Assembly: GCA_036172245.1 (NCBI GenBank)
Contig: JAYWIR010000028.1
Span: 992,001 to 1,056,000 of the forward strand
Length of the DNA: 64,000 nucleotides
DNA from: Raillietiella orientalis
Taxonomy: Eukaryota
Direction of reading: 5' to 3'
A program made the translations under genes and the position numbers. Below are positions 15,736 to 63,000 of the stretch, one piece after another. Within the stretch, counting starts at the first letter, position 1, and the number at the start of each line of letters is the position of its first letter. Below the pieces are notes generated by a model. It saw nothing but the letters and a program-made list of their open reading frames with translations. It was not told the DNA's origin and did no database searches.

Positions 15736-15846
15736 TTGCCATTTCGCGTTGGTGCCTCTTTCTAATTGGCATCCACATTTACCCCTCGTCCGCGCACCGC
15801 GTGGATGAAGCGAAACTGCAAGGAACCAACCGATCGCTACGTCATG
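15736..15846 (+). repeat. Diverged direct repeat, copy 2 (copy 1 at about 13922-14040)
   Basis: 28 consecutive identical bases with copy 1 (TTGCCATTTCGCGTTGGTGCCTCTTTCT), followed by collinear similarity. Confidence 0.9.
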
Positions 15847-19454: not shown

Positions 19455-20005
19455 TTTTTTTTTTTTTTTTTTTTTTTAAACACTGTCCATGCCGCCCGAG
19501 GGTGCGTGTAACTCTTCAAGATAGGGGAGGGTACCCCGGAGGGACTCCCGGACAGGATTCGCTCCTGGTTTCCACCTCTGAAGAGAGTTCCGAAGAGACA
19601 CTTCATAATTTCTCTCGGAGAGCGCGCTTTTCTAAAGGAGCAGCGCGCTTCTGACACTCTGGAGAAGCGACCTCCCGAGGGTGGTATCAACCGGCTCTGA
19701 GGTGCTACGCGATGGAAGGCTCTCTCCCCTGAGGGGAGGAGGAACGGCTCCGTCTTCACAACCGGAGGATAACCCCGAGGATGGGATAACCTTTACTTCT
19801 GGAAGGACCCTGGAGGGTCCGCTTCCAATACTGGTCAATCAACGGGGCCATCTACCCGAATGGGCCAACCAGCGTCATCCTGCAGGAGGGAGGGGGGGGG
19901 GGGAGATTGGAAACCCTCGACGCACCCCCCATTTCTTGGCGTCGATCCTTCCCCGGATGGGGTTCGAACCCGCGATGCTTGGTGTCACTTGCGGAGACCA
20001 CCATC
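19455..20005 (-). mobile_element. tRNA-derived SINE-like element, shorter copy with poly(A) tail
   Basis: On the - strand: Pol III B-box GGTTCGAACCC (19960-19970) at the 5' end and an A23 tail (T-run 19455-19477 on +) at the 3' end. Collinear homology along its length with 54862-55716 (TTCGAACCCGCGA.GC.TGGTG.CAC..GCGGA; CTGGAAGGACCC; CGCTCCTG...CCTCTGAAGAGA; GCGTGTAA.TCTTCA.GATAGGG). The A-box appears missing or degraded. Confidence 0.78.
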
Positions 20006-20289
20006 TTCTTTTTTTCCTTTCTTTACTGAAATCTGTGTCGGTCTGTGTCCCTTGGTGGTGTTGAGGCACATTGCCGGTTGGACAGCCTCCTCCGCTCAGC
20101 GATCGCAGGCTCCGGACGCCGTCGGGTTGAGCTGGCAGGAGCCGGGCGCACATCCCCAAACCATTATTTCCCCCGGTGGGAATCCGTCCGGGAGCGCTCT
20201 GTCAAGGGAGAATGCGAAAGGCTGATTGGTTGTTGTTGTTGCCCTTCCGTAACCGGAATGAATAAGCACGGGAATTTTTCTCTTTCCAG

Positions 20290-23300: not shown

Positions 23301-26300
23301 TGGAAGCCCTGCGTGAGCAAGCGCAGGGAAGAAGGGGAGGTGGGGGGGAGGCTGCTCGCAAGCTGCCCTGCCTCAGCGTGCCTCAGCGATCGTTCCGTGG
23401 CGTTTACCCCATGGAACGAGAATTCCCATTTCTTCTTCCCGGTTCCCTTCAGATTCTGATATCCCCATCCGGGGTTTCAGATGAATAGATGAATTTTTGC
23501 ATTTGGAGAAGGACCGACGTGTGCCGCCTTGAAACGAAAGGCGATTGCTAGCCTCATTGGGAGCAGAATTAGGGAGGAGTGGAAGGAAAGAAGGGATGAG
23601 GCCAATAAGCAGGTGGTTCTCTGAGTACTGGCCACCACCAACGCGAACACCGCGATGCTTTCCACGTTGCAGCCACTGTGTTCTCCGACCATCACGGAAG
23701 TGACATCTCGAGGTCATCCAAGAACGAAGCAAAAGGTTGGAATGCCTCCGTGCAGACCTCTTGTTCTCGTTGGTCTACTTCGGGATGGTGCCACACGCTG
23801 ACTGCGTGTTTATCGTGCACACTATGTGTTCACAGGGCGACTGGGGCGGCAATGTGCCGCCATCCAACAGCGCCGGCAGTGTCCTCATCCAGCTTGCCTG
23901 CCGTTCTGAGGAACGAAGGTTCGCGAAGGGAGAGTGGGAATTGCTTTCCGGTTACCATTGCAGGAAGCGGCGAGCATCTCTCGGATTCAAGTGTTGTCAA
24001 CGGAAATTCTCTTCGCTCTGAGGGACCCACGTTGATCTTTTCCCTGACCATAACGACAAAATGATGGGTTGGGCAGCTTAGCTCTCGCCATAATCGAGTT
24101 CATTCATCCGACAATTTCGAGGAGGCGAAAGGGTTGGATTCCTAAGTTGCGTGTATCTCCCGATAAAATTTAAGCATTCGACTCGGTGGGATGCGTTTTT
24201 GTTTTTTGTGTTTTTTTTTTTTCATTTTCAAATAGTAATGATGGACGTGGAGGGCCCTTGCGTCCTTCTGTGCGGGATCCTGAAGTCAGCCGCCACCAGG
24301 GACTAGGAGTTGGCAAGCAGAGAGTTCCGGGCTGGCATCCGCGCGTGTCTCTCGAATGGCCAGGCTCCATGAGACCTGCATGTCAGACCGAGGGGGGAGG
24401 AGAATATGGGCACGTAGGCGCGGAGCCAGAATCAGATAGATTCCCGATCAAGAGAAAAGGCTGTCACAGGGAATGGAGCAGTCGCTGCTCGGCTTGTGGG
24501 TGGGATTCCGATCGGGGGAAGATTCGTAGTCAGCATGAGAGGAATGTGTCCAGGTAATGAGCCATCTGTTGCTCGCTTACTGCGCCCCGCATTTATGCGT
24601 GGCCCATCGTGACGGAATGCCGCTCTTTCGTGGGCTGCTAGTCTTTGGCACGTCTTTTCCTTTGCTTGCACATGGCGCATGGTGCCTCGCAAAATACGCG
24701 TTTCTTCTCCTCCTCCTCGTGCTCGTTTGTGACCTCGTAAGGTCCATGCCTCCTTCAGGTGGATGCGCGCGGACAGTTTTTGCTCAGCTTGCCAAATCTT
24801 TCTCGGATCCATGTTCCACAAACCTGGTGACGAATAAACCCGGTAAGGGAAATCGATTGAACGTCCCTTAGCGCAAGCGGGAGGTGTTGCATAGAGGATG
24901 GCTTCAGCTTGGTAAGATGGAAGTGTTCGGCGAAATCTCTTGGGACCCTGGATTCATCATCAATTTCGTGAGACAAGAACAAACTCGCGATGCAAACTTG
25001 ATGAAAAGAAACGCCGGGGGCTATTTTGTTCCTTTCAGAGGAAAATGCTTTCCAACTAAGAGCTGCAGTTTCTGAAGCCAAACATCAGACACAGCACATA
25101 AGAGCTGATCATCCAGACACGAGAAGCAACCAGGACACCTCGTCGACATGAAACGGGAGCGGCCTTGGTGGCCTGTGTCCAGAGCTAATCGTGTTAGCCA
25201 GGACCAAGCGTTAACGTGGATCGGAGAATTCATTCTGTGGGTGCTCTCATTCTTCACTGCCTACCTCTCGCACCAAGGAACGTGTCTCCAGAACTTGTCT
25301 CACCCTTGGTTCATACCGTGGAGGCTCGCACGAGGTGTACGAACCAGGAAGCAGGCGAGCTGTTTCGTTTGCGTTGTGGCTGGAATTCCAGGTCACTCGT
25401 GTGCGTGCTGCACACGAATGACCGCCGCTCCTCATCATCTTCGGTTAGGAAACAGGGACTGAGAGTGTTCTGTCCTTCGCTCTTCACCGGGAAGCGCAGG
25501 AGTGCTTGCAGACATGCTGCACTTCCCTTCCTTTTCTCCTATTCCTCGACGCCTTTTTTCTGGGAAGGTCGGTCGATCTCTTTCGGAGGACGCGCTCCGA
25601 CTTACTTCGGCAGGGCTCATGCACTAGGAGGACGATGGCAAGGTAGGAAGAGGGGGAGAGAGAGACGTCTGCAAGAGCTCGGCCAACGGCAAAGAGATTT
25701 GAGTTGTTGTTTTTTTTTTTTTTTTTCCTTTCCTAAGGAGGATGAAAATTCCTCGTGCAGATTTATGGTGTTCTTCTGATCGCGCAGTGTCAGCTCTTCG
25801 CGCAAATCCTGGAAAGAAAGAAGGGGAAAAAGAAAAGGAAAAAAAAAAAAAAAAAATTTTTTTTTCGTTACCTCCCAAGGGATTGATTAAACGAGGATAA
25901 TCTTTCGGGATTAGACCCAGGCAGACGTAATCCGATGATGCAAAAAACAAATCTCTTGCTCCGTTCGTTTAGCACGCACTCAGCCCGTGCTTTTGCGACT
26001 ATGCACCCCTCTGCTCTGCGCACGGTGAGTCCCGCTGAGATTCGGTGCTCGACCCCATTGTGACGGGGGAGAAGTTTATCGCCCCGTCTACTGCTGCAGA
26101 GTGCTTAATAATCTGGCAGCTGTCTTCTCCGAACGTTCATCTACTCATCAATCATCATTAATGCGTGCAGCGATGAGATAGGGAGAAAAGCGTTCGATTA
26201 ATCCCCTCGTATTTCCAAATCTTAAGTGGGAAGAATTGGGAAGGGGAGGGGGAGGACGAAAAGGAAGTGAAGGAAAGAAGCCGGAGGACGAACGAAAGAA

Positions 26301-36576: not shown

Positions 36577-39500
36577 CGCGTGTGCGGCGCAGCGTTCCGT
36601 CCGGAGCTTCTCAGCGGGTTCGAGGTGTGCGGCGGAAGGAATGGGTCCAAACCAGCAGACGGCGGGGGCGAAGGCAAGGAAAAGGTCGCGATGAACAACA
36701 CTAGGCAAGCCGCGGATCCTGGGCAGCCGCGCTCCCCCCCCCCCCTGCGTGCGTGGCGACGCGAGCAAATGAAACGGAACGGTCGCACTGGACGGCGGAA
36801 GGGATGTGTTGGCCGAACCGGGGAGCCGTAAGCCTGCGGTGACCAGATGAGACTTATCTGCTCATCTGGGAGAGGACGCCGACAGCGTGGAAGTTTCTCG
36901 ACGGCGGAGAGGGTTCGCGCGCGCCGAAAAGGCAGAGGAACACCAGACCACACTTTTTTTCCGCCTGTTAGGCAAAGGGTCAACCCAAAACCCTCATTTG
37001 TCCCAGCTTAGCTGGCGGCATCTGTCTCGGCTGGCCATTATCTTGCGTTATATTGTTCAACGCAAGGGTGTTCCTGGGTAAACTCCCTCAGGGAAGGATG
37101 CGCGTGGGTGTGATCCGAATGTGGCTTTGGAACGTCCCGTCTCCCTGCCTACGTGCTTGAAAACAAACTCGACTCTCCCGGGTCCTCTCCGCTCCTCGGG
37201 GGTTTCCTCGGATCCGTGGCTCCTTCCCTCCTCGTTTTCCCGTCCCGAAGACGTCGGGGATGGCTCGAACGATCGCGCGCGTCGGGTGGGGATTTTCAGC
37301 CCACATTCCTTGCCGTCGCCAGGCTGCGTCGCTCTCCCGCGGATTCCGCTGCTCCTTCGCAAGGGGGAGCTGCCCCTCCTTCCCCGGAGGTAATCCACTC
37401 CCGTCTCTCCCCGATTCCTTCCTCCTCCTCCTCCTCCTCCTCCTCCTGCCCTACTTTTCCGGAGGGGCGAAGCGATCCTTTCGGAAGCGACGACGCGAGC
37501 GTCTCCCGGAGCGGCGGCAGTCCGCGCGCGAACGCCCTGGCTCCGGGAAAAAAAAAAAAAAAAAAAAAATCCACCCTCGTGGGACTCCTGGGAAGAGGAC
37601 GCGCAGCCGTTCTTTCTGTAAAAAGAAAAAAAAAAGGGGGGGGGGGAGGGAAGGGGAGAATTCGCGGTGTTCCAGAAACACGCCTGTTCCTTTCGTCGAT
37701 CGCGTGAGGCGAGAGAGTGCAGGAGCTCTCCTGGTGGGTCATCGCCGCACCGAGGAAAGAGCGAAAGAACGCCTCGTTTTATTCCTCCTTCTCCGTTTTT
37801 TGTTTGTTTGTTTGCGGAGGGGGGAGGTGAGCCCTCTTTGCCCCTTTTTCTTTCTCATGCGTGTCCTCCCTTTATCCCAGCGTCGGCTCCCTTTTGTTTG
37901 GATCCCGGTTCCCATCATCATCCGTTCGTCTTCCCGTCGTCGAACGCACGGGGCTCTCCTGGCGACGACGAACATCTTTGGAAGGGGGGGGGGGGGGGGA
38001 GGGCAGTATCGTGCCAGCAGGCCAAGACGAGAGGAGGCGCGCCGATCCCCTCCGGCCCTCGCCTCGCAAGGATCGCGGGGCTCATCGAGCGAAAAGGCGT
38101 CAGGTAACGTGAGAGATGAGGTACCCGCGGGTTGAATCCACTTGGCGACGGACGACTCGCGGAGGATAATTCGAGAAGAACCCACCGAGCAAAAGGGAAG
38201 AGGGAAAAGTCGTGCGGGCAGAGTAAACAAACGGCACGCCGCTCGCCCGCTGCCTTTTCGCTTCTCTCCTTCCTTCCTTTCCTTTGGCTGTCCGCCGTCG
38301 CGGAGAGAGAAATGCAAAATAATCTCATAAAAAAGAGAGAGAGAGAAAAAAAAAAAAAGCGTAGCGATGTGTGTGCAAGGAAGGAGATGGGGGGACGGAA
38401 AAAAAAAAAAACAAAATCCTGAATCGATCACGCGCTCCACACTCGAGTCGAAAGGAGGACACACACACACAGAAAGCCATCAGCCCAGATGGAAAGTAAA
38501 TCCTTGCGAATCCACCGATTCCGAGGAGGAGGAGGAGGAACGTACTTTGGGGGGGGAGAGCGGAAACTCCTCTCTCCGTGCGTCGGTCGGTCCGTGTTTT
38601 CGTGCCGCCGTGATGCATCGTCTGCATCTGCAAGAGAGGCAGGCGAAGGATGGCGCGCGCCGATTGATGGCAGAGGGTCTCGAATCGGAAATGCCCGAGA
38701 GCGTCGTTACCTTCCTGTCGAACCGGCAGAGGGACCGTCACCGTTAATGAGGGGTCACCTCGGCCTGCGGGGAGCGCGCGCCCAAAAGAGCGGTCCTTCC
38801 TCTACCGCCATCACCTGGGTATTCCGCGCGCCGGGACCCCGTTCCTCTGCTTCCTAACCGAGTGTACATGGACACGCGCCATCCCCCTAGGCTGGCGAAT
38901 CCTCTCTTCCGGGAAGCCGAGCGCGTAGGGCCGCACCAGGGCGCGACGTCGTTAATCCGCTGAGAGGTCGGGAGAATTCCTGTCGGGGCGCGTGCTCCTC
39001 GCCTTTTCCTGCTGGCGCTTGAGAACCGACGAAGGATCGAACCCGCCGCCATCATCACCCGTGCGCACGCTATCGCGGAATGCCAGCCCCCTCCCTCCCT
39101 CCCCCGCTTCCCCACCGCGTGCTCCCGGAAAAGTCGGTCCCCGAAAACCTCGCTGCCAACGAGAGCTCCCCCACCCTCTCAGCGAATCTTCAGGAGGATG
39201 GGAGCAGACGTTCGGAGCAGCGTCCCCCACACCGTTGTTGATGAAAACCGGGTTGCAGTGGGGGGAAAGTCTGTGATAAGAGACGAACCCTTTATTTCTT
39301 CATCTTTCTTGAAAGCAGGGGGGATCCAGGAAGCGGCAAGCGCTGCCGGAAATGCCATTCCTGGAGATTTTTTTTCGCGTCGCCGTCGGAACACGCAGTG
39401 GAAGGAGGTTGCGGCGGTTCTCCGAGCATCTGGCGTCGCACTTACGCGTGCGAACGAGCAATATTGCCGGAGGGGCCTCGGTTCTTGCGATCACGCGGAG

Positions 39501-41000: not shown

Positions 41001-41590
41001 TATTATATACCAATTAAGCATCCCAGCGGAGGTTGAATATTCCCGCGTGGACACGGAGAGAGTGGGTGCGCGAGGGGACGTTCATTTGGTCACGCCCTTT
41101 GACCTCAAGACCCATGGGGTAGTGCGACCTCCGCTTTTCCAGGAGAATGGTCTCTTCATTGTTTGTTCTATGGGAGTCGGTGGCGCGGTAGAGAGGAAAA
41201 AGGCACTGAAGGATGCAATAGAGGACCACCTAAACTCAGCGAGTCAAGTCGTAGGCTTGAGGGTGAATGATGAGAGGTCAGGAACGACTCCACACCCGCG
41301 CCAATATCTCTCCTCTGATCTTTACAAGTGGGAGCGTCTGTCAGCGATTGGAAAAGCAGGAAGCGCGGCTCCTTCTAAGGTCCGCGGAAGGCGAACGGGA
41401 ACAAACGGAGAATTCCCGAAGAACACCGATGAGGCGATTCTGGAAACGGCGGAGGTCACACTACCCCATGGGTCTTGGGGTCAAAGGGTGTGACCACATG
41501 AACGCCCGCTCGCGCACACACACTCCCTCCGTGTCCACGTGGGAATATTTAACCTCCGCTGGTATATTTAATAATATTAAATATATAATA
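41001..41590. mobile_element. MITE-like foldback element (about 590 bp) with long terminal inverted repeats
   Basis: Core arms 41023-41142 and 41440-41562 are about 90% identical by hand alignment (CCAGCGGAGGTT.AATATTCCC.CGTGGACACGGAG.GAGTG...CAAGACCCATGGGGTAGTG.GACCTCCGC). Both outer ends read TATTATATA on opposite strands. No transposase recognised. Confidence 0.78.
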
Positions 41591-44647: not shown

Positions 44648-44841
44648 AATTCTCGTTCCGTTCATTGTTGTGCAGCTTTTCAATTCTCGTTCCGTTCATT
44701 GTTGTGCTGCTTTTCAATACTCGTTCCGTTCATTGTTGTGCTGCTTTTCAATACTCGTTCCGTTCATTGTTGTGCTGCTTTTCAATACTCGTTCCGTTCA
44801 TTGTTGTGCTGCTTTTCAGTTCTCGTTCCGTTCATTGTTGC
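44648..44841. repeat. 34-bp minisatellite, about 5.7 head-to-tail copies (AAT[A/T]CTCGTTCCGTTCATTGTTGTGCTGCTTTTC)
   Basis: Units start at 44648, 44682, 44716, 44750, 44784 and 44818 (partial). They are near-identical and have no spacers. Confidence 0.97.
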
Positions 44842-47800
44842 TATTTTATGTGTGTGTGTCTTTTTGGCATGTTCTCTCCTTTCTTTCATTTTCCTTCAGA
44901 TCTCGTGCCACCGTGATTGATCAGTTCACATTTCATATTAGCAAATTTTTTCGCATGTGACAGTCGAAAAATCACTGCAAAGCGAATGAGCATTCGGGAG
45001 TCTTCCACCAAAACGAATAAAACATTCATTTGGGAGGGGGCAAGGCGCGGCGAAGTAGCAACTGCATGATACAAAGGTGCATGCCAGCAAGTTCAGGAAA
45101 AAAAAAACAAAAACAATCAACAAGGCATGCGGTGTAATGACGAGGTGTGGAAAATGGATTTTGGTGGTTGACTGTGGCAGCAGAGAAACAAGATGATTGC
45201 GGCAGCCGTGCGGAACTTAAGATGTCCATGAGCGACCCGAAGGGGCAAAACAAATTGCGCGCGAGTTCCCAGAAGGTGCACCTTTTTTTTTTTTTTTTTT
45301 TTTTGTCGTGGACTCACCGCCGAGTTCGAAGTGCTCAATCGAAACTGCAGGAGGCGCCGTCTCGTGCATGCCAGAATCTCATGGAAATACGAAATGGCGT
45401 GCCACTTTCGTGGGCGCGCTTCTGAAAAAGCTTCTTTTCACCCTTCGGTGAGCCGGATTAAGAGGTTTGTGTTTTTATGGGAATTCTCCCCATCCCCTCT
45501 TCCCCTATCGCAAACTTCCAAGCGTTTTTCACTGGTGCTGCTGGTGGTTCCTATCTTGTTCCTTGCATCCATCATTCCTTTCTGAGATGAGTTGGATTAG
45601 AAGAGAAGCAGCCATGGATTTCTTGCGTGTGGCTCCATACATCCATTCTAACAGAGCAGAAGGAAAACAAGGTTGCGCCTTTCCCTTCCCGTAGCCTCTG
45701 TTATCGTTCGAATTCGGGTATCAGACCGTGGATTGGTTTAACTTAGAAGACGGATGACCTAAAAATGTGGAGACCTCGTTTCGAGCGGTCTCAGCTAATT
45801 GCATGGCAACCAACTTCTAAAATTACATGGACAACGAAAGGCAACCACGCCGAAGAACTGCAGCGAGTGCAACAAGGGCATCTGTTTTCAGACAGTCTGC
45901 GTCCCGTGAAAGTCAAGAGTGTAAAGGAATCGTGTTTTAGGTCGTCGTCCTGAAGGAAACTCGGAAAGAAAGGTTACGTATTCAGCATATCCGTTTAGCT
46001 CGGCGAAGCATTGAAGTATGTAGCAAAGTCGGCGGTCCTTGAAGAAGCCTCGAAAACCGGAACCAGCTCGTTACGAGATATAGCAATGGTGTCACCGGTA
46101 TGCACGGTGAATTCACAAGGGCGATATCTGGCTTTGTTCCCATTGAGTTTACGCAGAACAGCGAGACTACCGCATGGAGATTCAGGAAGCGAGCGCGGGG
46201 CAACTCTTCTGACATTATGATATCCGGCTCGTCCTGCCTGAAGCCGTTCTGCCTCTGCCTTAAGCCCTTCCCCTCTGTATTTGACCAGCGCCTGTGCCTA
46301 ATTCGTGTAACTAAGAAATACGAGAGCTAGAGTTGTGTAATTCTCAACTCATTTGTGTGAAATGTTTGATCGATATGCCTCCAACGATGTGCGATGTTCC
46401 ATCATTTCACAAACGGAACTCAATATTGTACTCCGCAAGCACATTGCATAGCACATTCTCCATTGTGCATACACGGGTGTCATCTGTGTAGCATCTCGGA
46501 AGTGGTAGACAGGTCATCCCCCCCTTCATCTTTCTACCTTTCCGTCCCACGAAAGACATCTGCAGAAAGATGTCTTTCCTGGAGATGCAAACTCTTGAGA
46601 TTTCAAGAAGTCCTATGGAAAGCTTCTGAGTAGAAGTGTCAACTGCGGGCCTCCTGTTCTTCCTGTCCCTGTGGACAGTCCTGTTCCTCTCTAGCGTGTG
46701 TCGGACTAGAAAGCTTCGATGTGTGCCCTCGGACCTTCAAAGCTGGGGTGAAATCTCAACCAAGATGCACATCTCCAAGCAAATGGCAGTTGAAAAGCGT
46801 TTGCATTAATTCTCGTATTTACACTGCAAGCGCTTTCTGGACCGCTGCTTTCAATCTCTCGTGCAGCTGTTCCCGATTGCGCGCTGCCGTCATTTTTTGA
46901 AATCACGTGTGAAACGGGAACTCGAAAATCATTTTCTGAAATCACCTGAGACACCAAAGGTACTTGCGTCACGCTTCGTTGTTTCCAGCGCGATGCTTCA
47001 CTTTCAGATGCGTTTGTGAGAAGAAACTGTCTCGTGCTGTCCTCCCGTCGCTTTTCCCGATTCTTTTTCTCGCACCGTCCGTGCCCACTCTGAGTATAAC
47101 TCGGAGGTCGCGTGGGGCTGGTTGGTTTCTGCAGCCGTCGGAGCTTGTCGGTCTCCGCGAACACTCCCTCGACACCCGCTTGACCAGCACGCAAGTGACC
47201 GTGTGCGCTCCTCTGCTTTTATCTTTTGAATCCTTTAGGGTTCGTGGAGGAATTCTCGTTCTTCCCCAGAAGCGCTCGTGTAGTGCCCGCGTTTATTAGG
47301 CGGCTGCTCCTTCGTTTTCATCTGGTGACCTCGGGATTTTATTTAAAGAAACTAACAATTGAGGAACTCATCTCCCGAAAGAGACAGAAAGAAGTTTAGC
47401 GGGAATGACCAACAGCATGCATGCCGACTTTTGAGGAAGTCCGGAGCGGGAAGAAGGGGACAACAAATAAATAAAAAGGGAGGGTCTTTGGTTTCAACCA
47501 TTCCTTGCTTTCTAAAACTGGCGCTGGATGGTGGCGATCTCCCTGGCGATTTCTTGCTCCAAGTGGGGCCACCTTGCAGCCGTCCTTATGAAGGTGGCTG
47601 CTAGGTGTCCTCCCTTCGCTGCATCCGAGACTCCAGCACCATCGAAGGGGACGGTGACGATGGCGCGGATGCAGCATGTTGCTGCGATCACGGCGCCTGC
47701 TGGGGAGTCCGCTTCGCGCGAAGAATCTCACCGCAGTGAGTCTATGGCGCTGCCCTCCAGGTGCAAGATCGCTGAAGATACAGTCTCCGCCACGGTTCGT

Positions 47801-50800: not shown

Positions 50801-51771
50801 CTGGCAGTTTTGTGTGTGTGTGTGTGTGTGCTTTCCTTTTCTCAGCAAACGCGCACGAGGCCCAGAAAGAGCGCTCCGTTTCCGTCATGCCTTCTTCAAG
50901 TTTGGAACGAACTGTGTGTGGCGCTTCTGATTCTCTTTCCTCTGTGGAATCGCAGATGAAAAGGCCAAGCCCGAAAAACCTGTTGCTGGAGAAATCTCGG
51001 AGAAGCGGATCGAGGAAGAATACAAGCGCGGGGAGAACGTGTAGCCCAGCCATCAAGCAACAAGCTGCGTTGCTAAGTAGTCCTCCGAACGATCAGCGCA
51101 GAAGTGAGGGATGCTGTGATGGCAGGGGGACAGAAAGTTCTCTTTGGGATCCGATTTTCCTGTTCTTCTCTTTTCTCCTTTCATTCCGGTTCGTCATTGT
51201 CATTGAATGGAAAGAGAAACTGGCATGTTTTGGAAGAGCACTGTAATTTGATTAAACCTACGGTCACTGTAAGGGAATTTCGTCGTCGTCGTCGTCGTTG
51301 TTGTTTATCACCGGTTGCATCTTCTTTTGCAATCGCTTTCAAGGTGCCCCGAAATTGCGAAACTCCCGTGAAGTTAACTCTCATCTTTTTGGATCTGTTC
51401 AGTTATCTAGAAACCAGGCGCAGCAACCGATCTGCTGCTGCTTCTTTAAATGCAATCCAGCGTAAAGGCAAACTGCGATAGACGGCGATCCTATTCTCTC
51501 TCATTCATGTGTTTGCTGCGCATGCGTGGTGAAAAGTTTCACTTCCGCACCTCTTTGCAACAAACAGCAACAAAAATGCTGATGCAGGAACAACGTCGAA
51601 CAATTTTTCCTGCGAACGGACTGCGACTGCCATTTTTTCAGACCTTAATCACAACGAAATCCGTTCGTTGTTGCCGTAGGAACTCAGCATTGTGAGCATT
51701 CCTGCGACTTCATTAATACCAGTAAACGACTTTTTATGTTTTCCTTTTTCAAAAACTGTGTTTCTTTTCAG

Positions 51772-51843
51772 GGATCTCAGTAACAACCAGCTGGGCAGCA
51801 TCGGGAAGAAAATGTTTCGAGGAATGGGATCTGTGAAGATCTT
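51772..51843 (+). CDS. slit: Slit D1 LRR exon (fourth LRR): (V)DLSNNQLGSIGKKMFRGMGSVKI(L)
   Basis: Acceptor tgtgtttcttttcAG (AG 51770-51771), donor GTAAGT at 51844, 72 nt, in frame. Matches the DLSxNQ...G(R/K)(R/K)xF(R/K)G motif of Slit D1. Confidence 0.95.
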
Positions 51844-53946
51844 GTAAGTTGACCATCCCTTTTGGTAAACAGTCTTCTTCACTTACCGTGGTGAGGCCGA
51901 GGCTCCGGTTGGCGAAAGTGTTTACCAAACACATGGAATCCGTGCCACGTTATGGTCCACTACACAGTGGCATGTTGCGCAGCGGAAACCACCTGTAATC
52001 CGTGACAGACGCGTTCCTTCCGCCAGGTGGCTGGCGGGTGGATGTGCCCGTGTTGTGGCACAAAAGTCGAGAAGGATCGTCTGTCCCACGCAGACGAGTT
52101 TGCGAAACGGCCCCTCTACCTGGGAAACCGGGAAACCGATCTGCATCCCGTTTAGCGTTAAGACCGAGCGCTATCCATTCGTTTCGAACACAAAACCGTG
52201 GACAGTGTGAGTGGCAACTGTGGCTACCGTTCATCCGCTCGTGTGGCGAGCGGCGAGACGCAAACTGTGATTCGGATAAAAGATGTAGAGACGCGGGTGA
52301 CGGGTGGAGCGCCATGTTCAGAGACCTGTCGACACTTTAGGACTTTTGGGGGGGGGGGGGGGCCGCTCGTCGAAAAATGGTAGTGGCGCTGTGGAGGTGG
52401 TGTCTGTCACCGGACACTTTGTGGTGTTGCCTTTGGGATGCGTGTATCTGGGAAATTATTGAAACAAAAGAACTGCAAGTGGACCGGAAACTGAGTAGAG
52501 CGCTTTTTCTTCCTCATGACTTGCGTAGGAAAGTGGATCAGACTTCAGGCTCCAAAGAGATGCGCTTCCACACATCCCCTTTCTGCGTGTGTGTAATCCC
52601 TTTGCTTACGAGCATTCTTCCTCGACACGGCTGCTGCTCCTGATGGCCCATCATTGCAGATACCACTGCCGCTGTCGGTTTCCGTCGAAGAAACACCAGG
52701 GCTCACAATACGTTCGGCGTATCCTGCTGCATTCCAGCTTCCTTCAGCTGCAAAAAGATCTGTCCATCTTCTCCTGTCTGATTTCGTAGGAATCTGCACG
52801 CGTGGACTCGGGACTCGAGCAGCGATGATGCTTCACGAAAATTCCTTCGCAATCCTTCTGCATCCTCTGCCTCCGTCCGTCCTATATTTTTGGTCGGGGT
52901 ACATCTGCGTGCTTGTTGGCAATACGTGAGAGAAACATTTGATGGGCCCAAGATATTTGGACCAGTGCCGAGGTTGAACCGCGTAAATGGGAATCGGAGT
53001 CCTGTTTTCATGTTGGTTATGCAGTCTTTTGTTTTCCCATTCGGTTGAGTTTAGCTGGCGCAGTTTTGGGATCCAAGGCTCCGAGGGTCTGTGGTTTCTA
53101 GCAAATGGGCTCCTCGTGGGAGGGGGGGGGAGGGATTTCAATCATCTAAAGTTCTGAAATTTTAGCAACCACGAGGGAGGGGGGGGGAGGGGGTGAATGT
53201 CCAAAACGCAGCTTTCAAAAGACGTTGTGTGTGTGTGTGTTTTGCCTTCGTTTGGCTTCTCTCTGTTTTGTCTTTCGAGCACCGATGAGTCTTTTGAGGT
53301 AGGAAAAAATCTCCGCGGGAAACCCAAGTGGAATTCTCTTGCCAGGGGTGTCGCGTGGATCTGTTTTCCACGTTTTTTTTTTTTTTTCCTCCGTTCTTCT
53401 ACAGCTTCGAAAAATTTTTCGCTTGGCCTCGAGCGTGTCGGACTCGGACCTGGCAGAGTGAAGAAACTTCCAGGAATCTGCAAGCCTTTGGAAACCGTGC
53501 ATCCCAGTCGACGTGCTCCAGGAGTTCTGCTTTCTCGTTGTTTTACTCTCCAAGAAACTTCATCTTTGCAGCTCATCGAGTCGGATTCCGTTTAGAAACA
53601 AAGCAAAGGCAGCTGTCACGAGAAGAATCGGTCGGCTCTCCGTCGAGGAATCGGTCCGCGGCATTCTCATCCATAACGTTTGTGCTGTTCAAGAATGCAT
53701 GTTTGGTCTCGCGAATCGAAGGCTCTTGGAAAACACCAGCAGCTGCCCCGCGGATGACTTGTTGATGACTGCTTTGCGCCCGAAGCGTCACTACGAAACT
53801 GGAATCAGTCCTGTCAGATCTTTCAAATCTCACCGTGCTGAAGAACTTGTTTTGAATGACCTGATCACACGAGTCACTCCGGTGGAGCAAACACGCCGGC
53901 CCCTCGATCCGTGCTTCAAGAAGCATTAGGAAACAGTTCTCCTGCT

Positions 53947-53981: not shown

Positions 53982-54861
53982 GAGCAGTAATCCAGCTCTC
54001 GGGCTCGCCGACCAATCCCACCGAAGCGAAGTTGATAGAAGTGTTGATGACGTCCACAGATAGGTAACGTAACCTAATCAAAGTTTAACGAAGCGTGGCC
54101 GTACATGTCCTGACTGATGGAAGAGACTTTGACGGAGTATGAATGGTTCTAATGAGGAGGTGAGGGGAAGTGGCGGTTCTTCCTGGCGCGCTAAATACTC
54201 CGAGTCCAAAGCTGTCAACGGGTTATCATTAAGGTGTTTTGAGAGCTGCAAGTGAAAGCGCGTACCGCAGTGGGCACTGGGATTCCGTACGGCAATGGTA
54301 TTCCTCCTCTGTCAGCGCCGCTGCTCATTTGCATTCTACTCTGCTTGTGAGTCGGTTCCGAGAAGTGGGTTCTTGGCAGACGAACGGGTTACGCCCCAGA
54401 GCCCGTCTCGTAGAATCGAGAGTTTCAGAGATCGAAGACCAAGCTCCCCACCCCATGGCGGTGCCGACAGTTCCCAGTCGCTCGCCGCTGTCCACCAGAC
54501 GTGATTCTCGTGTAATTTCTTCTAAGGATCAGGTTGAGTACGTGAATTGATGTGTGGAACTCTGCCGCGAGACGATCTCTGTTTGCTGCTGTTGCTTCTC
54601 CGAATCAGCTCAGTTTCGAATCGCGGTTCAAGTCCTACGCGTCTCCTCCCCTTTAGCTTTCCAGAATATCGTCATTAGACGATCCTGCTGGAAGGCGGAA
54701 TTCCCGAATCCAACGCAACGTGCTTGCCATTCCTCTTGTCTCCCCTTTGGATGCTTCGGCCTGTTGCGAAAATCAAAGCATACCTCTTGCACGGTTGCAG
54801 CTTTGTGGCGCGGAGGTCTTCACCAAAGCGAGCAGTGGTAACAGCAATGGGGGCAGCTGTA

Positions 54862-55716
54862 TTGTTTCCACGCCCCTCCGCCCGCGGCAACCCGCAGGGG
54901 GGCGTGTAATTCTTCAGGATAGGGATCACCCCGGGATGGGGGTCCGCCCTATGAATCCAGGAAGGGCTCGGAGTCCGTTCTTCTCACGCTTGGGGAGGGA
55001 TCCCCCCGGAAGGGGGGAGGGATCGCACCTCCCACCCTGGTTGTCTCCGAAGGGGAACCCCGAAGGGAATCTCCTTCCTCATTCTCTCCGGAGGGACCCC
55101 CCCGTAATGGGGGGTGGTCCTCTCCATTTCAACTTCTCCGAAGGGAACCCAGAAAGGATCCGCTTCTAGGAATTTCTTCTCCGGAGGGAATCCGCAAGGG
55201 AACCGCTCCTGTTCACTCCTCTGAAGAGAACCCCGGAGGGACGCTTCCTCAGAAGAGGCGCTGCAGCTTCCCGCAGGGAATCGCTCTCGCTTGCTTCCTT
55301 TGTACTCTGTGAAGAGGCGACGACTCGGAAGGACCCCCGCAACAAGAGGGGGTCCGCTCCTTTGAACAACTGGAGAGGTGCCTGTGAAGGCTCCTGCTCC
55401 ATCTTGAAACCGAGGGGTCTCCCGGTGGGGGGGTCCGCTCTCCGTTGTACGACCGAAGTGGGAAGTCCCCACTCCTGGATTCCTGGAAGGACCCGAAGGT
55501 CGACTCCCATTGTTCCGGCCTTCATCGGGGGCCTCCGGGGCTTTATCCACCGCCGGTGCCGCGCCCGAATGTCTCGGCCAAGCAGCGCCATTGCAGGAGA
55601 AACTCGGCACCCGACGACGCAGTGACGTCAGAGTTTCTGCCGGAGTATTCGAACCCGCGACGCGTGGTGCCACACGCGGAAGCCTTAACCACAAGGCCTC
55701 CCACGCGGGCAGTGAA
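54862..55716 (-). mobile_element. tRNA-derived SINE-like element, long copy with internal hairpin array and candidate 8-bp target-site duplication
   Basis: The - strand head (55639-55710) has an A-box-like GGCCTTGTGG with a D-arm (GCCT-TGTGGTTA-AGGC) and a B-box GGTTCGAAT (55647-55655). The element is homologous to 19455-20005. CAGCTGTA flanks both sides (54854-54861 and 55717-55724). Confidence 0.8.
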
Positions 55717-58700
55717 CAGCTGTACAGTTCTGTTTCCCGCCTCCCATCCTACCCACCCCTTCGTCCCCTGTCACCACGAGAAAAGTGCGCCGCCATCACA
55801 TGTCGTTGTCCCGCTTTTCGCTTTGTGGTTTTCCGTCTTCCGCAGCAATCTCAGTTACTTTATCGGTTGCTCAAAAAAGTTTTTTCGGAATTCTCAAGGG
55901 TTGCCGAAAACCACGAGCTCCCTCGCGCGGTCACCCTCCAGCCGCAGCATGCGGTCGCACCTGGCCCGGGGCTTCATTGATCCGTTCCCGTTTGCGGATT
56001 TTCTCATCTTTTGCCACCCATTCGACGGAGGTTCCTTTCTTTCGCCTTTCACCAACTCGAATAAAACAACGTGCCTGAAAGGCATTTCTTCCGGTCTGCG
56101 TCTCCCTTCCTTCTTTCGCTCTTTCCTTCGGCTCAAGAGGATTTTCGCTCTGCAAGTGCTCCTTGCCGCGTTGCCGTACTTGTTCAATAAATCTCTTTTC
56201 GAGAGAACCTTTTCTTCTTCTTTTTTCCTAATCTGTCTTTTTTCCTGGTTCCGTGAAATCGATTCTGTCCGAAACGCTGCTCTCGAAACATCCGCATCAG
56301 TTCGTATTCGTCTGATGAATCGGTATTTTCCGAATAATCAGCCGATCTATTGTACTACCCACGGTGCATACCCAAAGACTTTGATCCTCCCCCAAATTCA
56401 TTGTCCCGGATTTTTGGTGGAAAATGACCAGTTGGTGAATTCTGTCCGCCATGTTCGAATTACAGGCAGAGCAGCGAGTCCTCTCGCCCAGCACGCATTC
56501 TTTTAAAAGCATCTATTTGTGGAATCCGTTCGTAGCATTTGTAGCTTTTAGCTAATCCAAGTGCTTTCGCCTCACCAAGCTGTTAAGGTTGTCGGAATAC
56601 GTTGATGGTTGATCCCAAGGACGTTCTTTGCTCTGCTGCCTGCAGGGCATCAAAGTAATGCGGTCTCTGGCTTGCTTGTTGTCATCGTCAGTATGTCTAG
56701 CATGACTTTTTTCCAATTATTACGCAAAAGTCTTATTACGCATACTCCAGAGATCACAAAGAGTTACGTGTGTTTCCGCAAAACCGAGACTCGTCCCCAA
56801 AGATGGGATTGGAGTATATGAAAAAAAAAAAGAAAAAAAATGTGAGTTTGAAAGAGAGTCATGTTGGATGCAAAGATGCAGATGTTGACTTAGCAAAGCG
56901 CATATTATGGAAGCGTCTTGCGCATGCGTGCTCCGTTTTGCAATCCTTGAAGCACATTGCAAGTTAGGAGGAGGACGTAAAGCCTTCTGGTGCGCGGAGT
57001 TGGCGCAACGGGTGATGAAAATCGTTCGTCGGCAGAAACCCGTCAGGGGATGTTCGGATGTTCTTACAAAATCGCGTAAGCTCTCACCAAACTGTTCGCT
57101 AAGCACCACCGCAGGAAGTGGTCCAGATCACAACCGATAACCCGAAGGAAGACGTTTGCTTTAGTAAACGAGCGTGCTGCAATAACAAGACGCCTTGGAA
57201 CCGAAGGGGAAGCGATGTGTTTTCGTAATGCCACGTGTACCGCCTCCGGGGAAGAAGGACACGCAGAAAAGTTCAGAGGAAGCTGGCGGAAACGCTGGTG
57301 GCTTCCAGGAAACGGTCCTGGTGAGCCCTTCTTTTGCGGAACAAGCCTTCCTGCCGAGTGTGGTTCCTGCTGCTCTTCGGGAGATGATGGGTGTTCAACG
57401 GCTTCCGGAGTCTGGAACTGGTAGCAAAGTTCCCCCCCCCCCCCTCCTGAATGCAAGGCGTGCGAAGAACGAAGACGGCAAAGTGCTGGTGCTGCGGAGT
57501 GATCCACAGGACAGCCTCGTGGTCTAGCAGGCCGGAGTGGTCACGGAGCGCGGTGGGGATTTTCGGCGCCCTGCGTGTTGTCTTCGCCGCGGGGCCGTTT
57601 GCCAGACGTCACTTGCACGGACGATCCTCTCGGGACGCAATTCGGCACGGAACGAATCGCTGCTTTTGACGACGGTCTCGGCGGTCTCGGTGCTCAAGAC
57701 AGTTCCTCGGGACGTTGACGCAATGAAGTGAAAAAGAAGAAAGAGACCAGCAGTTGCTCGGGGAAATGCTCTTTCTTCGGAGCGTTTCGGACAAACGGCG
57801 CCAGAGGATTTGATTTTAATCAGCGGATTCGCTTCCGTCTACAGGTCGATTAATCTGTTGAGGAAGAGCAAGGCGAGATTTACTGAGCGCTTCGATTTGA
57901 GCCAGGCTATCGGAAACGCTTCCCTCCGGATGGTGCATCCCGGACCCTTCGAACGCGAAAGAATTTTTTGCGTGCATGGGTTTTTTCCTTCACTCCCGCT
58001 TGTTTTGAACGCGCTCCCGGCGAGCACCGACTCATCGGATTAATGAGACTCGAGTGTGCGTTCATTAGATTAGGTTTAATTAATTAGCACGGTTTGTCAG
58101 ACGTCAAGGAACGGAGCTCGGAAAGCCCCTGAATCAATAAAGGTCTGATTGCATAGAAATAGGGCTAGGGTTCCCCCCCCCCCCCTCTTTCTGCCTGTGA
58201 GGGCGTGCGTGTGCACGCGTGCACACACGGGTTTCCAATCTCGTGCTCCCAAGGCGCTGCCTGCAACTCCGCCGCCGCCGCGGGAAGCACCGACAAAGCA
58301 TTCGAAGCATCTTGAAGTTCCCTCAGCATGCCGATTATCACGTCATAGTGGTGTGTGTTAGTGTGTGTGTGTGTGTGAGGGGGAGGGGAGGAACAGCAAG
58401 AACAAAAAAGCAACAAAGAGAGAGAGAGTGAGAGAGAGAGAGGAACCATGGAAACGCTCCCTTCTCAAAGCGCCGATCTCGCGCGCGCTTCTCCTCAAAA
58501 ATGGACGCAGGTGTTGCGCGCGCCCGATCTGCGTGTTTCCTTGCGGAGTTCCCAAAGCACACGAAAATTCGTGTTGCCGTTCGCTCGCTCGAGGGATATT
58601 GCTGATTTATCGGTGGAAGGCAGGGACTTCCCCGCCACCGCCGCCGCCCACCCCTTCTCCTCGTCCTCTTCCCTCTCCTCCCCACTCGAGATCGTGAGCC

Positions 58701-59674
58701 TAATTTAATGCTCCTACTGAGAATTCGCCGATTGCATTCGTTTGTGCGGGGGCACGCCGTGGGCGCGCATCGGCTACGCGGAGTGCGCGAGACGCAGAGC
58801 GAGTCCCGAAAATACCTTTCAGTGCCCCTCGCAGCGCCGCTGGCAGTTTTTATTGAAGGGGGCTGGCAAACACACTTTCCTCCGGATGCCGACCGGGAAG
58901 CTGGGACCAGGAGACGAACGGCGCGAACGGGTCTTCTGGAGGTGCCCCAGCGCCGAAGGGCTGCTAAAGATCAGTCCAATCTTCCCGCGGAATCGCAAGC
59001 GCCGGTGTGATGCTGCACCCGAAGGGCCGGGAAGGCTATCTCGGCATCCCACCTGGCTTCCCCGGCGGGGAGCCTAGTAGGTTCTCCGCTCATTCCGTTC
59101 CAGCATCCGTTCCGGAGGCAGAAACGCCCTTCCTGTGGAAGATGGCCGCTTTCCTGTCCCCCGCTGCTCGCTACTTCGCCCGCGATCCACAGGAACGAAG
59201 CAACGGGCAGCGGACGTCGGTCAGATCGTCCAGGGGAGTGGCGACTCCTGCAGGCGCAGGGATGCGATTCTCTCCCTCGCCCAAAAGATGTGCATCCAGA
59301 TGCTCATTCTCCTAAGGCGCGGGAATTCCTGTTCCCGTCCTCCTCCTGTCGTTGAGACAGAAGAAGGACGGGTCACCTAGTCGTCCACTGCTCCGGCACT
59401 CCCTGGCAGCCACAGTGGCGAGTGAGCTTTTCGGGGGTGCCTTGCCTAGTGGACACTGGTACCGGTTCGGTCCGGGAGGACGTCCTGGCTGGGGAGACTC
59501 TGCGCGAAACCTCAGGCTATCCCGCATCTGTGCTTCGAAAGGGACGTTCTGTCGAGCTCTCTGGAGCGCCAGCTGGCTCCGCCGCACCTCGCCTCGGGTC
59601 GTCCGCGCGCGAAATGGCCCTGCGCCGCGCACCATCTCGTCCTGCTCTAGATAATTGCACTCCTTCTCTTCCAG

Positions 59675-59746
59675 GAACCTGGAGAACAACAGACTGACGT
59701 GCATAGACGAAGGTGCCCTGAAGGGGTTGCGCGATCTTGAGACGCT
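59675..59746 (+). CDS. slit: Slit D1 LRR exon (fifth LRR): (L)NLENNRLTCIDEGALKGLRDLET(L)
   Basis: Acceptor ctccttctcttccAG (AG 59673-59674), donor GTGAGT at 59747, 72 nt. Contains the Slit-typical TCIDExAxxGLxDLExL motif. Confidence 0.96.
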
Positions 59747-59830
59747 GTGAGTGCGCCCCCTCCCCTCCCCTCCCCCGCAATCCGCGCGTTTCCTCCCGGA
59801 GACGTCCCCGCGTCTCTCCCCTTCCTCCAG

Positions 59831-60066
59831 GACCCTGAACAACAACGAGCTCTCGTTCCTGCACAAGGACCTCTTCGCCGGGATGAACAAGCTGCGCAAC
59901 GTCAGGCTGGCGGAGAACAGATTCTCCTGTGACTGCTCCCTCGCCTGGATCGTTTCCTGGTCCAGGAGAAACCCTCGGACGATCCAAGGGGGCGTGTGCA
60001 GCTCCCCGGTCAACCTGAAGGGGAGGAATTTCGCCGATCTCCACGAGTCCCACTTGAAGTGCGACG
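59831..60066 (+). CDS. slit: Slit D1 last LRRs plus LRRCT cap: (L)TLNNNELSFLHKDLFAGMNKLRNVRLAENRFSCDCSLAWIVSWSRRNPRTIQGGVCSSPVNLKGRNFADLHESHLKCD
   Basis: Acceptor tctctcccttcctccAG (AG 59829-59830), donor GTAGGA at 60067, 236 nt, phase 2-1. Has the LRRCT cysteine pattern NxFxCDCxLxW...CxSPxxLKGxxxADL...C. This is the real core of ORF 59751..60596. Confidence 0.96.
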
Positions 60067-63000
60067 GTAGGAGGATTCGAGACGCGGGGTTGGGCTCCCT
60101 TTTCGGACGGCGCGGACTCTCTTCCAGCTTCTCTGTCCCCCTTCTCTCGTTCTCTATTTATTTATTTATTTCTCCCTCTCGACCAAAGGGGAAAGAGGAG
60201 AAGGGATCTGGGCGGGTGGCTTCGAGGATTTCGGTTTCAAATGGCGGGAACGCTTCCCTGGACACATTTTCGGAGAGCGAGATTCCCGTTTCCTCCATTC
60301 CCGGTCGCCACGGTTTCCTCCCGTCTTCACAGGTTCTGCACGCGTGCCACCACTACGCAGACCACCTCGCGGGGAAAAGTCTGGAATGTGTCGAACTTTG
60401 CGCTTCACCCCATTCCCCCACCCTGGAACTCAAAAGTCGCGCGCTCCCAGCCTCCTCCCTCCTCCTCCTGCTTTTCTCCCCCACTTTCCGCCTCCTCGTC
60501 TCCGTTCCTGCGACCGGCAGCCAAGCAAAGGAACAGCAGGGCAGGCGGATTCGCCGCCCCCGTCGGCGAAGGCGGGTCAGTGAGATGCCTCGTTAGTTTT
60601 CGCCACTGAGGTTCATGAGCTCGTCGCCAGGGGGTGGTCGTGCAGGTTCTCACCTTCCCACCTTTCCGGCTCCAGGAAAAACGGCTGTCCACATCCACCC
60701 ACCCACCCCGCCTGCGCGGGGACAGGAAGGATGCGCGCTGCGGGTACCATCTTCATGGGATCTTCCTTCACGGCGCCATCTTCTTCCAGCGGGGTCCCCG
60801 CGTTAAGTACGCGCGTCCTCATCTCTCGTACCGAAAGAACATGTTGCTTGTGTTTCTTATGTACTCGCAACTGCGGGTATCTGGGGAATGGGGCCGTTTC
60901 CCCTCGGGCAGCCGGAATGCCCCTTGCGGGATACGCGAAGAGGCTCGCCTTCTGTCCTTCCTCCTCGGTCCCCCCTCTGCCCTCTTCTACCCGGCACCTC
61001 AGTGCTGAAGGACGGACTGGCGCCGTTCGCTGCGGAAAGCGCTCGGCGGCAGTTCTCCGGAAGCCCTGCGGCTGCCCCGCGTTTGCGTCAGCAGGTGACC
61101 CCCGGCGCCTACCTTCTCCCCATCTTTCCGGGAGGCAACTACGCACTCTCCTGCTTCATGCCATGGTGTCCCCGTGCGCTCCTCCTGGCGGCCCTGTCCT
61201 TCCCTCGCTCTAACCACCGTGCCTGAGGGAAGGAAAAGGAGGTTTTCCCGCACCGGCAACCGAGACAGCGCTGCTCCCCCTCCCGCGAGCTGCTGGGGAG
61301 GACGCGCCAAGACAGGGAGCAGCCTCCTTCGCTTTATGCGCTCTTTGCTCTCCGTTGCGCAACGTCACCTGCACTCAGCAAAAAAAAAAAAAAAAAAGGT
61401 TCCAGGAATGAGGCACGCGCTGTTTCTGTTGGCTTTCCGCTCCTCGTTTCCGGATGATCGATGGGCTGGAGGTTCCGCTCATCCATCGTCACAGCCGCAT
61501 GCCCTATTCCTCCTCCTCCTCCCTGCCTGTTCCTCACTTTTTCGTCCTCCTCTTCCCCTCATCCACCACCATTTCTACTCTACGAATGCGGGTTCCTCCT
61601 CGTGCTCGCTCAGCCGGCGTCTCCTGTGCACCGCACCAAGGCGCTCGCGTTCCGAGAGCGTGCACGGTCACGGCCCTGTCGACGCGCGCCATTTTTACTC
61701 CCTGGCCCCACCTTCTCCCCCTTTTCCCATGAAAGGAGGTCGTGGAAGGCGCTCCTCGGCATCGGAGGGAACCCTCACTCCCCCCCCCCCCTCTGACCCA
61801 CCGGGACGCCTCGAGGTCCGGCACCGTGCGCGCCTCCTCTCGTCTCAGTGATCGACCTGTGAGGCGCCGTTGGGTCTTCGCCGGTGTTTCGACCGGCGTG
61901 CAGCTGCTGCTGCTGTCCGCGCCTCTGCCTCCGCCTCTGGAAGATCCCTTCTCACGCTCGTCGGCCATTGGCTCTCAGGAAACTCGATCGTCAGGTTTTT
62001 CCTTGGAGGCAGCGACTGCACCGACTCCGTTCCTCCCAAACGTCCTCTCGTCAGCTACAGCGAAATCCCTCTCTTCCGTTCCTTTTCGTGCCCTCTTCTT
62101 CTCGCTCCTCTCCCCTCCCCCTCTCTGCTTCTTTAGGAGGACCTGACATGGGACCGCCTTTGCTGCGTCCTCAGGGTCTCGAGGGGGTCCATGGCTCCCT
62201 TCGAAAGTTCGTTGCTCTCCTCGTTGAGGTACCAAGCGCACGCTCCGCAATACGTATCTCTTGGCGCGCGCAACCTTGCCCTGGAGCCTATTCTTTAGGA
62301 AGAGAGGGAAATGGAGTTCTTATCGCCTTTTTTTTTGGGGGGGGATCTTCCGCGATGAGCAGGCCGCAGCAGGGACCTTCTCCCTGAGACGAGATTGGCT
62401 GGAGGGCCGAGACACGTGGCTCGCCCCTGCTTGTGACCCGGGAAAATCGCAGAGCTAGAGGATGTGGATGGAGTGGAATGGAGGATGGAAGGCGCGAGGT
62501 CATCCGGACTGGAGCTGTGTTGCTTTTCTCACTGCCGAAGGCTGATTCTTTGAGGAATCCGGTCTGTTGCTTAGCGATGCAGCAGCAGAGCCGCGAGGAG
62601 TTGCGGGGAAGCGGATCCAAGCTTCCCCCACCCCCATTTTTCGTTCCGCACCGCGGGCCTCAGGGCATCCTACCTGCATCCCAACAAGTGAACAAGCTGA
62701 TTAGTTAGGGGCCTTCGAAGAGATGCAGGGTGGCATGCAGGGGCTCGAACCGGTGAGAGGAAGAAGGCTGAGACGAGAACCTCGCAAAAAGCGCCGTATG
62801 CCCAACGCCATGGCCTCGCCGTCCCTTTTGCATCCGCATCCTCCGGAGGCAGTTTTCCCTTCGCGGTAGCCGGGATGAGTCTTCTTGCTGCTGCTTCTGC
62901 CACCATCGCCGGTTTATGGACGTTTCCCGACGATCACCGCGCAGGTCGCCTGTGAGGACCACTAGGGGGCGCGCCTTCAGTCTTTCAGATGTGCGTGGAG

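Follow-up and report, generated by a model that had tools for sequence, protein, structure and literature searches.

A probable SINE-type family with a variable body of tandem hairpin-forming units in Raillietiella orientalis

Retroposons with repeated interiors are found in hosts that include hominoids and the AT-rich amoeba Entamoeba histolytica. SVA, a composite retroposon of hominoids, is non-autonomous and has a GC-rich middle made of a variable number of tandem units of 35-50 nt; it is not known to have a tRNA head or to be an RNA polymerase III (Pol III) unit, and a retroviral fragment and poly(A) form its end. Here we describe a short interspersed element (SINE)-like element in a stretch of 64,000 nt from Raillietiella orientalis (contig JAYWIR010000028.1, positions 992,001 to 1,056,000 of the forward strand), which is called the window below and whose own numbering is used throughout; in this element, a tRNA-like head is followed by a tandem array of hairpin-forming units. 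SINEs are composed of head, body, and tail modules, and the 175 family consensus sequences collected in SINEBase are 75-662 nt long (PMC3531059). CHRS, a SINE of cetartiodactyls, is a quasi-oligomer in which a degenerate motif of about 20 nt is repeated more than 10 times, with repeat counts that are not the same in all variants (PMC3531059). EhSINE1 of E. histolytica, which depends on a long interspersed element (LINE), has conserved ends that enclose one to four internal repeats of 26-27 nt (PMC2996970). For stringent-type pairs of SINEs and LINEs, recognition is reported to take place via a 3′ stem-loop (PMC5135761).

The element at this locus shares features with these systems. Like CHRS, it has a tRNA-like head, a body in which a short, degenerate motif recurs in tandem, and copies that vary in repeat number; as far as a comparison of descriptions goes, it is unlike CHRS in that its unit is about 43 nt long (about 20 nt in CHRS), folds into a bulged hairpin, and is arranged in dimers of about 90 nt. 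With SVA, it has in common the build of a non-autonomous retroposon with a variable-number tandem middle. Its conserved 5′ and 3′ regions, its length variation through tandem repeats, the target-site duplications around one copy, and its presumed dependence on a LINE recall EhSINE1, whose repeats, however, are shorter and few, and the term "secondary structure" was not found in a word search of the paper that describes EhSINE1 (PMC2996970). As in stringent-type SINEs, the conserved tail of the longer copy (copy 1) ends in a strong stem-loop, beside which the second copy (copy 2) has a weaker stem-loop followed by a tail of 23 A residues. A word search of open papers, which did not extend to the sequences held in Dfam, Repbase, and SINEBase, found no account of a SINE built as an array of hairpin units.

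We consider it quite probable that the element is one of a family of non-autonomous retroposons (SINEs) in a bilaterian animal and that its quasi-oligomeric body consists of a tandemly amplified hairpin-forming unit. Our judgment is that the family is a real one of SINE type, with a variable tandem palindromic body, and, pending comparison with Dfam and Repbase, a further example of the quasi-oligomeric SINEs. An earlier reading of the window, made from the sequence alone, had proposed a candidate new class of SINEs. A tRNA-headed SINE-like family with a body of arrayed hairpins is indeed present, but the term "new class" is too strong, since quasi-oligomeric SINEs with variable internal repeats are already in print (PMC3531059, PMC2996970). 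If the family proves to be undescribed, it would add an invertebrate SINE with an unusually long body of hairpin units organized in higher-order repeats.

Anatomy of the element and its dispersed copies

The anatomy of the element was observed directly in two copies (Table 1). Copy 1 is non-coding and is ordered, on the minus strand, as head, core, hairpin-unit array, and tail. Its 5′ bound matches the behavior of contigs from an independent public DNA run, the agreement of which drops past position 55710 (0.53). The tRNA-like head with A and B boxes that the sequence-only reading had placed on the minus strand is present: compared by eye with the consensus words, an A-box-like word (55699-55689) agrees at 7 of 9 specified letters and a B-box-like word (55655-55645) at 8 of 9, and the starts of the two words are 44 nt apart. 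Between them lie two hairpins, one resembling a D arm and the other, with a 6-bp stem (55678-55661), resembling an anticodon arm. A 22-letter pattern taken from the head matched the variable arm and T arm of a genuine bacterial tRNA-Ser, which is compatible with a tRNA origin of the head but falls short of proof; the other match of this pattern in public collections was a chance one inside a bacterial coding region. The core that follows the head is not repetitive and is conserved between the copies, and a profile of head plus core gave, as its construction entails, E values of 1.5e-41 for one copy and 3.2e-55 for the other. The tail contains a conserved word that begins CCCTATC and is predicted to fold into a terminal stem-loop at 54906-54869 with an energy of -28.9 kcal/mol.

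The existence of copy 2, which the sequence-only reading had placed at 19455-20005, was borne out, with head, core, and tail aligning with 19455-20010, 35 kb away from copy 1. In a BLAST comparison, the two copies had three stretches in common and no more, namely the head at 85% identity, one pair of units at 75%, and the tail at 89%. In the pairwise alignment, the 5′ approximately 200 nt and the tail were conserved, and the number of units was about 12-14 in copy 1 and about 7 in copy 2. No third copy was found in the window, where the next-best matches had E values of 0.18 (head-plus-core profile) and 1.0 (tail profile). Duplications of the target site flank copy 1. They are imperfect: two blocks, one of 8 nt and one of 7 nt, are identical on both sides and keep their order, but the gap that separates them is 5 nt larger on the 5′ side. 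Runs of four or more T residues are absent from the minus strand of both elements (0 in 1380 nt, that is, 847 + 533), with one such run on the plus strand; the window as a whole has 4.0 such runs per kb, and the expectation based on composition is about 2.1.

The family was also seen in a second data set. In the independent public DNA run, which was available as summary tables in which contig depth is not copy number, 107 contigs matched the element at a likeness of at least 80%, with 7 at 99% or more, 11 at 95-99%, 45 at 90-95%, and 44 under 90%. Of these contigs, 81 overlap the element only partly, and a fraction of 0.56 of all that was aligned continues into sequence unlike the window. Ten contig joints skip 52-449 nt within the array, which indicates that other copies of the family differ in unit number. 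Because the 107 contigs are 80-100% like the element, many run into unlike sequence, and several skip units, they point to a dispersed SINE family with a variable-number tandem body. The flanks at 54400-54826 and 55742-56200 had no cover in this run, and no inference was drawn from this. A search with the tail pattern gave no match in public metagenome contigs or viral contigs. What places the family among the SINEs is the head with a putative internal A/B-box-like promoter in copy 1 (copy 2 keeps the B box only) and the modular head-body-tail build that is common to the dispersed copies, and what makes it quasi-oligomeric is the set of homologous tandem units, with a dimer present three times, about 12-14 units in one copy versus about 7 in the other, and the skipped stretches in the contigs of the public run.

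Two resemblances were noticed by eye near the head. The T-arm region of the head (55645-55668) looks like the 3′ half of the array units together with their linker, and the hairpin adjoining the head of copy 2 (19940-19960) looks like the last unit of copy 1 (54925-54945). These resemblances suggest that the units may derive from the head's 3′ portion. The unit profile reaches neither 55645-55668 nor 19940-19960.

Table 1. Positions of the SINE-like element, its parts, and the predicted host-gene pieces in the window
Feature	Positions	Strand	Basis or remark
Copy 1, SINE-like element, 847 nt	55716-54870	minus	bounds from alignment with copy 2 and flanking direct repeats
Degenerate tRNA-like head, copy 1	~55710-55630	minus	read from sequence and predicted hairpins
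Core, copy 1, non-repeat, conserved between copies	55629-55524	minus	copy 1/copy 2 alignment, columns ~100-215
Hairpin-unit array, copy 1, about 12-14 units	55523-54919	minus	folding, descriptor, unit profile
Array unit	55485-55507	minus	single hairpin, -8.0 kcal/mol
Array unit	55372-55400	minus	single hairpin, -14.2 kcal/mol
Array unit	55327-55360	minus	single hairpin, -22.1 kcal/mol
Array unit	55183-55209	minus	single hairpin, -9.5 kcal/mol
Array unit	55140-55166	minus	single hairpin, -10.5 kcal/mol
Array unit	55090-55125	minus	single hairpin, -26.9 kcal/mol
Higher-order repeat, ~90-nt dimer (GAAG unit + GGAG unit) x3	55262-55175, 55174-55083, 55082-54985	minus	alignment
Conserved 3′ tail, copy 1, ~50 nt	54918-54870	minus	tail alignment; no A run
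16-nt target-site duplication flanking copy 1 on the 3′ side	54854-54869
21-nt target-site duplication flanking copy 1 on the 5′ side	55717-55737
Copy 2, diverged subfamily	20010-19455	minus	BLAST, alignment, profiles
Head remnant and core, copy 2	20010-19831	minus	A-box region lost, B box kept
Array, copy 2, about 7 units	19830-19530	minus
Tail, copy 2	19529-19478	minus
A23 tail, copy 2	19477-19455	minus
Single-LRR piece, predicted	5394-5465	plus	collinear with fish Slit1; weak, E 0.17
Single-LRR piece, predicted	10746-10826	plus	collinear with fish Slit1
Single-LRR piece, predicted	51746-51853	plus	collinear with fish Slit1; weak, E 0.5
Slit-like gene piece, predicted	59649-59748	plus	collinear with fish Slit1
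LRR and LRRCT exon, predicted	59831-60066	plus	AG/GT borders, 82-nt intron upstream; PDB Slit2 E 3e-13

Units of the array and their folding

The units follow a common pattern on the minus strand: RRAG, a C that is usually single and bulged, GGAYCC with a C run of variable length, a loop of 4-9 nt, a G run with GGRTCC, and CTYY. The six units named in the sequence-only reading all fold as single hairpins on this strand (-8.0 to -26.9 kcal/mol), and at least 10 units beyond these, across both copies, also fold as hairpins; further units of copy 1 were located at 55455, 55223, 55049, 54994, and 54919. Unit length is about 30-48 nt, typically about 43 nt, and the starts of successive units are spaced 32-48 nt apart, or twice that where one unit is degraded. 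The linkers, which had been described as diverging freely, instead begin with a conserved GGAGA directly after CTYY. Loops of the form C(UUCG)G, to which the same reading had drawn attention, do exist at 55493 and 55062 in copy 1, and a third is found in copy 2, but they are not clearly special: CTTCGG occurs five times in copy 1 and forms a loop in only two of the five.

The repeat structure of the array, like its anatomy, was observed directly. A unit profile built from ten seeds found matches inside the two elements only (seeds at E of 0.0095 or less, by construction), with one additional unit at E 0.24 and the top match elsewhere in the window at E 0.92. The array units are homologous in sequence, and the unit consensus is itself an imperfect inverted repeat; therefore, each copy of the unit inherits both the hairpin and the one-base asymmetry that appears as the bulged C. 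At a higher level, a unit with GAAG and a unit with GGAG form a dimer that is present three times in copy 1 (Table 1) and once in copy 2 (19616-19530), and the alignment of these four dimers has a mean column identity of 64%, with 27 of 104 columns invariant. Tandem Repeats Finder, run on the window, detected only a 22-nt stretch of the array, because the units are too diverged.

An excess of local folding was a further direct observation. With pair spans limited to 50 nt and 100 dinucleotide shuffles, the array of copy 1 had local-folding z scores of -3.59 (minus strand) and -2.63 (plus strand) and that of copy 2 scores of -3.26 and -2.55, respectively, whereas nine control windows ranged from -1.90 to +4.41. 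Global folding gave z scores of -2.25 and -2.30 on the two strands. A descriptor of the form RRAG-hairpin-CTYY, which is loose (cut-off of -7 kcal/mol or better), had 118 matches along the minus strand of the whole window; 14 of these matches are in the two elements, which together span 1.4 kb, and 10 lie within 54994-55523. Perfect hairpins of at least 6 bp numbered 6 in the bin 55001-55500, versus a mean of 1.57 per 500 nt, and three unrelated bins held 11-16. The folding of the array exceeds chance, moderately.

Matching of the hairpin arms and rival explanations

The sequence-only reading had suggested that the structure was selected at the RNA level, for instance as a multivalent protein-binding scaffold. 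According to this explanation, the bulged hairpins of a Pol III transcript, together with single-stranded linkers rich in GGAG, would provide a multivalent platform for a nucleic-acid-binding protein of the partner LINE or for a host RNA-binding protein. The excess of local structure in both copies is in line with this, and so is the finding that several units pair via quite different stems, with unit 55372 showing one clean change from C-G to G-C relative to the unit consensus. At basal pair 2, a hand tally on the minus strand gave 5 G-C, 4 A-U, 3 G·U, and 0 A·C pairs (Fisher one-sided p 0.07), and the minus strand of copy 1 contains 19 GGAG words, where the window rate predicts 8.8, but only 9 CTCC words. 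The best sign of co-evolution between the arms is a correlation of run lengths: the longest C run in the 5′ half (2-6) and the longest G run in the 3′ half (2-7) of 13 units are correlated with a Spearman coefficient of 0.84 (p 3e-4), units related by duplication and hence representing few independent events. Against the explanation by RNA-level selection, about half of the units have a mismatched upper stem. Likewise, the two strands fold equally well, with a sum over 16 units of -222.3 kcal/mol on the minus strand versus -222.8 on the plus strand; the minus strand has 171 pairs including 10 G·U and the plus strand 159 including 5 G·U, and this asymmetry is weak and not decisive. What had been taken for covariation of adjacent units, the alternation of GGAG/CUCC with GAAG/CUUC, is one higher-order dimer copied three times and therefore counts as at most one covariation event. 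The first array unit has an identical 3′ arm in both copies and a simply degraded 5′ arm in copy 1, where its UUCG loop is a by-product of the decay of that arm. Among the 40 variant positions listed for the public run, which has 36 more, 16 fall within predicted stems, although paired positions make up 54.7% of the total; 10 of the 16 break a pair, 6 keep it, and none is accompanied by a listed change of the partner base. In a swapped-arm test, cognate arms gave a mean of -13.9 kcal/mol versus -9.05 for swapped arms, and none of 20000 permutations reached the observed sum, but the units had been preselected as folding, which biases the test. RNAalifold predicted no pairs on a MAFFT alignment of 14 units, because the 3′ arms are out of register, and an alignment of six units was no better. 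Given homologous palindromic units, a duplicated dimer, equal folding of the strands, and no compensating pairs among the listed variants, RNA-level selection or a role as a multivalent scaffold is not demonstrated by the structure of the array, and we regard it as unlikely. Zinc-knuckle proteins favor words of the GGAG type, and a selected RNA module of 7-14 units might accordingly be imagined as a multivalent decoy or packaging signal that captures a LINE or host protein, with unit number tuning retroposition. We hold this to be distinctly unlikely as well: the one positive point for a selected multivalent RNA is the matching of the arms, for which a DNA-level mechanism is an explanation too. 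Template switching is reported to create and maintain hairpins, giving matched changes without stepwise selection (10.1101/2021.04.15.439925). On present evidence, no new class of functional RNA is revealed.

Two other explanations concern the nature of the copies themselves. The sequence-only reading had also considered that they are retrocopies of a structured non-coding RNA, that is, retro-pseudogenes of a single functional Pol III gene. The promoter-like motif in the head and the structured body would suit such a source, as would the degeneration of both copies, with the A-box region missing from copy 2 and the A tail from copy 1. However, Rfam 15 gave no match at gathering scores anywhere in the window, and at E of 10 or less the matches to the two copies were at chance level only, the best reaching 20 bits against a threshold of 70 bits. 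In addition, one copy has whole blocks of units that the other lacks, divergence in the shared parts is about 15-25%, and the spread of likeness in the public run, from under 90% to over 99%, together with the variants in unit number, is better fitted by subfamilies with several source copies, so that a single structured gene appears very improbable as the origin. The body, being made of tandem palindromic units, could alternatively suggest that the element is a piece of a satellite or minisatellite, or else a DNA transposon or miniature inverted-repeat transposable element with a chance tRNA-like piece, and some parts of SINEs are reported to seed satellites (PMC10702118). We give this hardly any credence. 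The ends are defined, asymmetric (head versus tail), and common to copies 35 kb apart; copy 1 has long direct target duplications and copy 2 an A23 tail; Tandem Repeats Finder sees no array beyond its 22-nt stretch; and no terminal inverted repeats were noticed when the element ends were read, although no dedicated search for them was made.

For the SINE family that we favor, we infer the following course. Starting from the internal promoter that the A and B boxes of the degenerate tRNA-like head would provide, Pol III would transcribe through the element, the minus strand of which contains no T4 stop. A LINE reverse transcriptase would then copy the RNA into new sites by target-primed reverse transcription, with the conserved 3′ tail and its terminal stem-loop as the likely recognition site, and integration would leave target-site duplications and sometimes an A tail. 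The body would have been formed by tandem amplification of one palindromic unit of about 43 nt, in copy 1 as a dimer of about 90 nt present three times, and the hairpins would mostly have been inherited together with the unit. The number of units would shift by slippage, unequal exchange, or template switching, favored by the hairpins themselves. The complementarity of the arms, including the lengths of C and G runs, may be kept either by arm-to-arm template switching at the level of DNA or complementary DNA or by selection acting on a few transcribed source copies. If undescribed, the family would lend itself, as a natural case, to asking whether template switching or source-copy selection maintains the match between the arms of palindromic tandem units and whether hairpins drive changes in repeat number during reverse transcription.

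Several points weigh against assigning the element to such a SINE family. At 847 nt, copy 1 exceeds the length range of the 175 consensus sequences in SINEBase (PMC3531059). The head keeps the 5′ half of the T arm but has lost the acceptor and the 3′ half of the T stem; ARAGORN reported zero tRNAs in the window, head included, and Rfam at E of 10 or less gave no tRNA match to the head of either copy. The consensus words for the boxes were not derived with a tool, and the promoter function was read by eye. Copy 1 has no A tail, a target-site duplication of copy 2 was looked for and not found, and a Pfam scan of the open frames of the window found no reverse transcriptase or other transposon domain. 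The full-length copies that were read number two, the remaining members being represented by the summary tables of the public run. Finally, the divergent units 55372, 55455, 19617, and 19715 still pair, with different stem sequences, and run lengths co-vary between the arms, neither of which would be expected if palindromes decayed in a purely neutral way.

Host gene and surroundings of the element

Both copies lie, in antisense orientation, in introns of a Slit-like gene predicted on the plus strand of the window, one intron being about 41 kb and the other about 8 kb long. The pieces of this gene (Table 1) would be separated by introns of about 5, 41, and 8 kb and one of 82 nt. The best recognizable piece is the exon at 59831-60066, in which Pfam indicated LRR_8 and LRRCT, both below cut-off; a word-based search gave one relative, Slit1 of a fish (40% identity), and HMMER placed annelid, mammalian, and tick Slit, as well as a termite Slit fragment, among the best relatives. 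Judged by these similarities, the gene marks the host as a bilaterian animal. A coccidian parasite, which the base composition had at first suggested as host, was rejected because this exon encodes part of a Slit-like protein. With regard to annotation, the SINE-like family accounts for two GC-rich, highly structured stretches in introns of the Slit-like gene that might be mistaken for structured RNA genes.

Other features of the window were also noted. A 281-amino-acid frame had no relative in protein searches. A tandem repeat at 44648-44840, with a 34-nt period and copies that are 94-96% identical, is the source of a spurious sub-threshold Pfam match to Galaxin_repeat in one frame. Three repeat pairs unrelated to the SINE were found, namely 8543-8704 with 6961-7116 (77%, inverted), 15736-15848 with 13922-14042 (81%, direct), and 41440-41572 with 41013-41142 (87%, inverted). 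Homopolymer runs of 10-23 bases, in all four letters, occur 33 times in the window; examples are T22 at 45283-45304, A22 at 37548-37569, T18 at 13496-13513, and A18 at 25839-25856 and 61380-61397. The long A or T runs may be tails of other retroposons. The composition of the window, with a GC content of about 55%, an observed-to-expected ratio of 1.00 for CpG, and values of 0.41 for TpA and 1.23-1.26 for GA/TC, is unusual for an animal genome.

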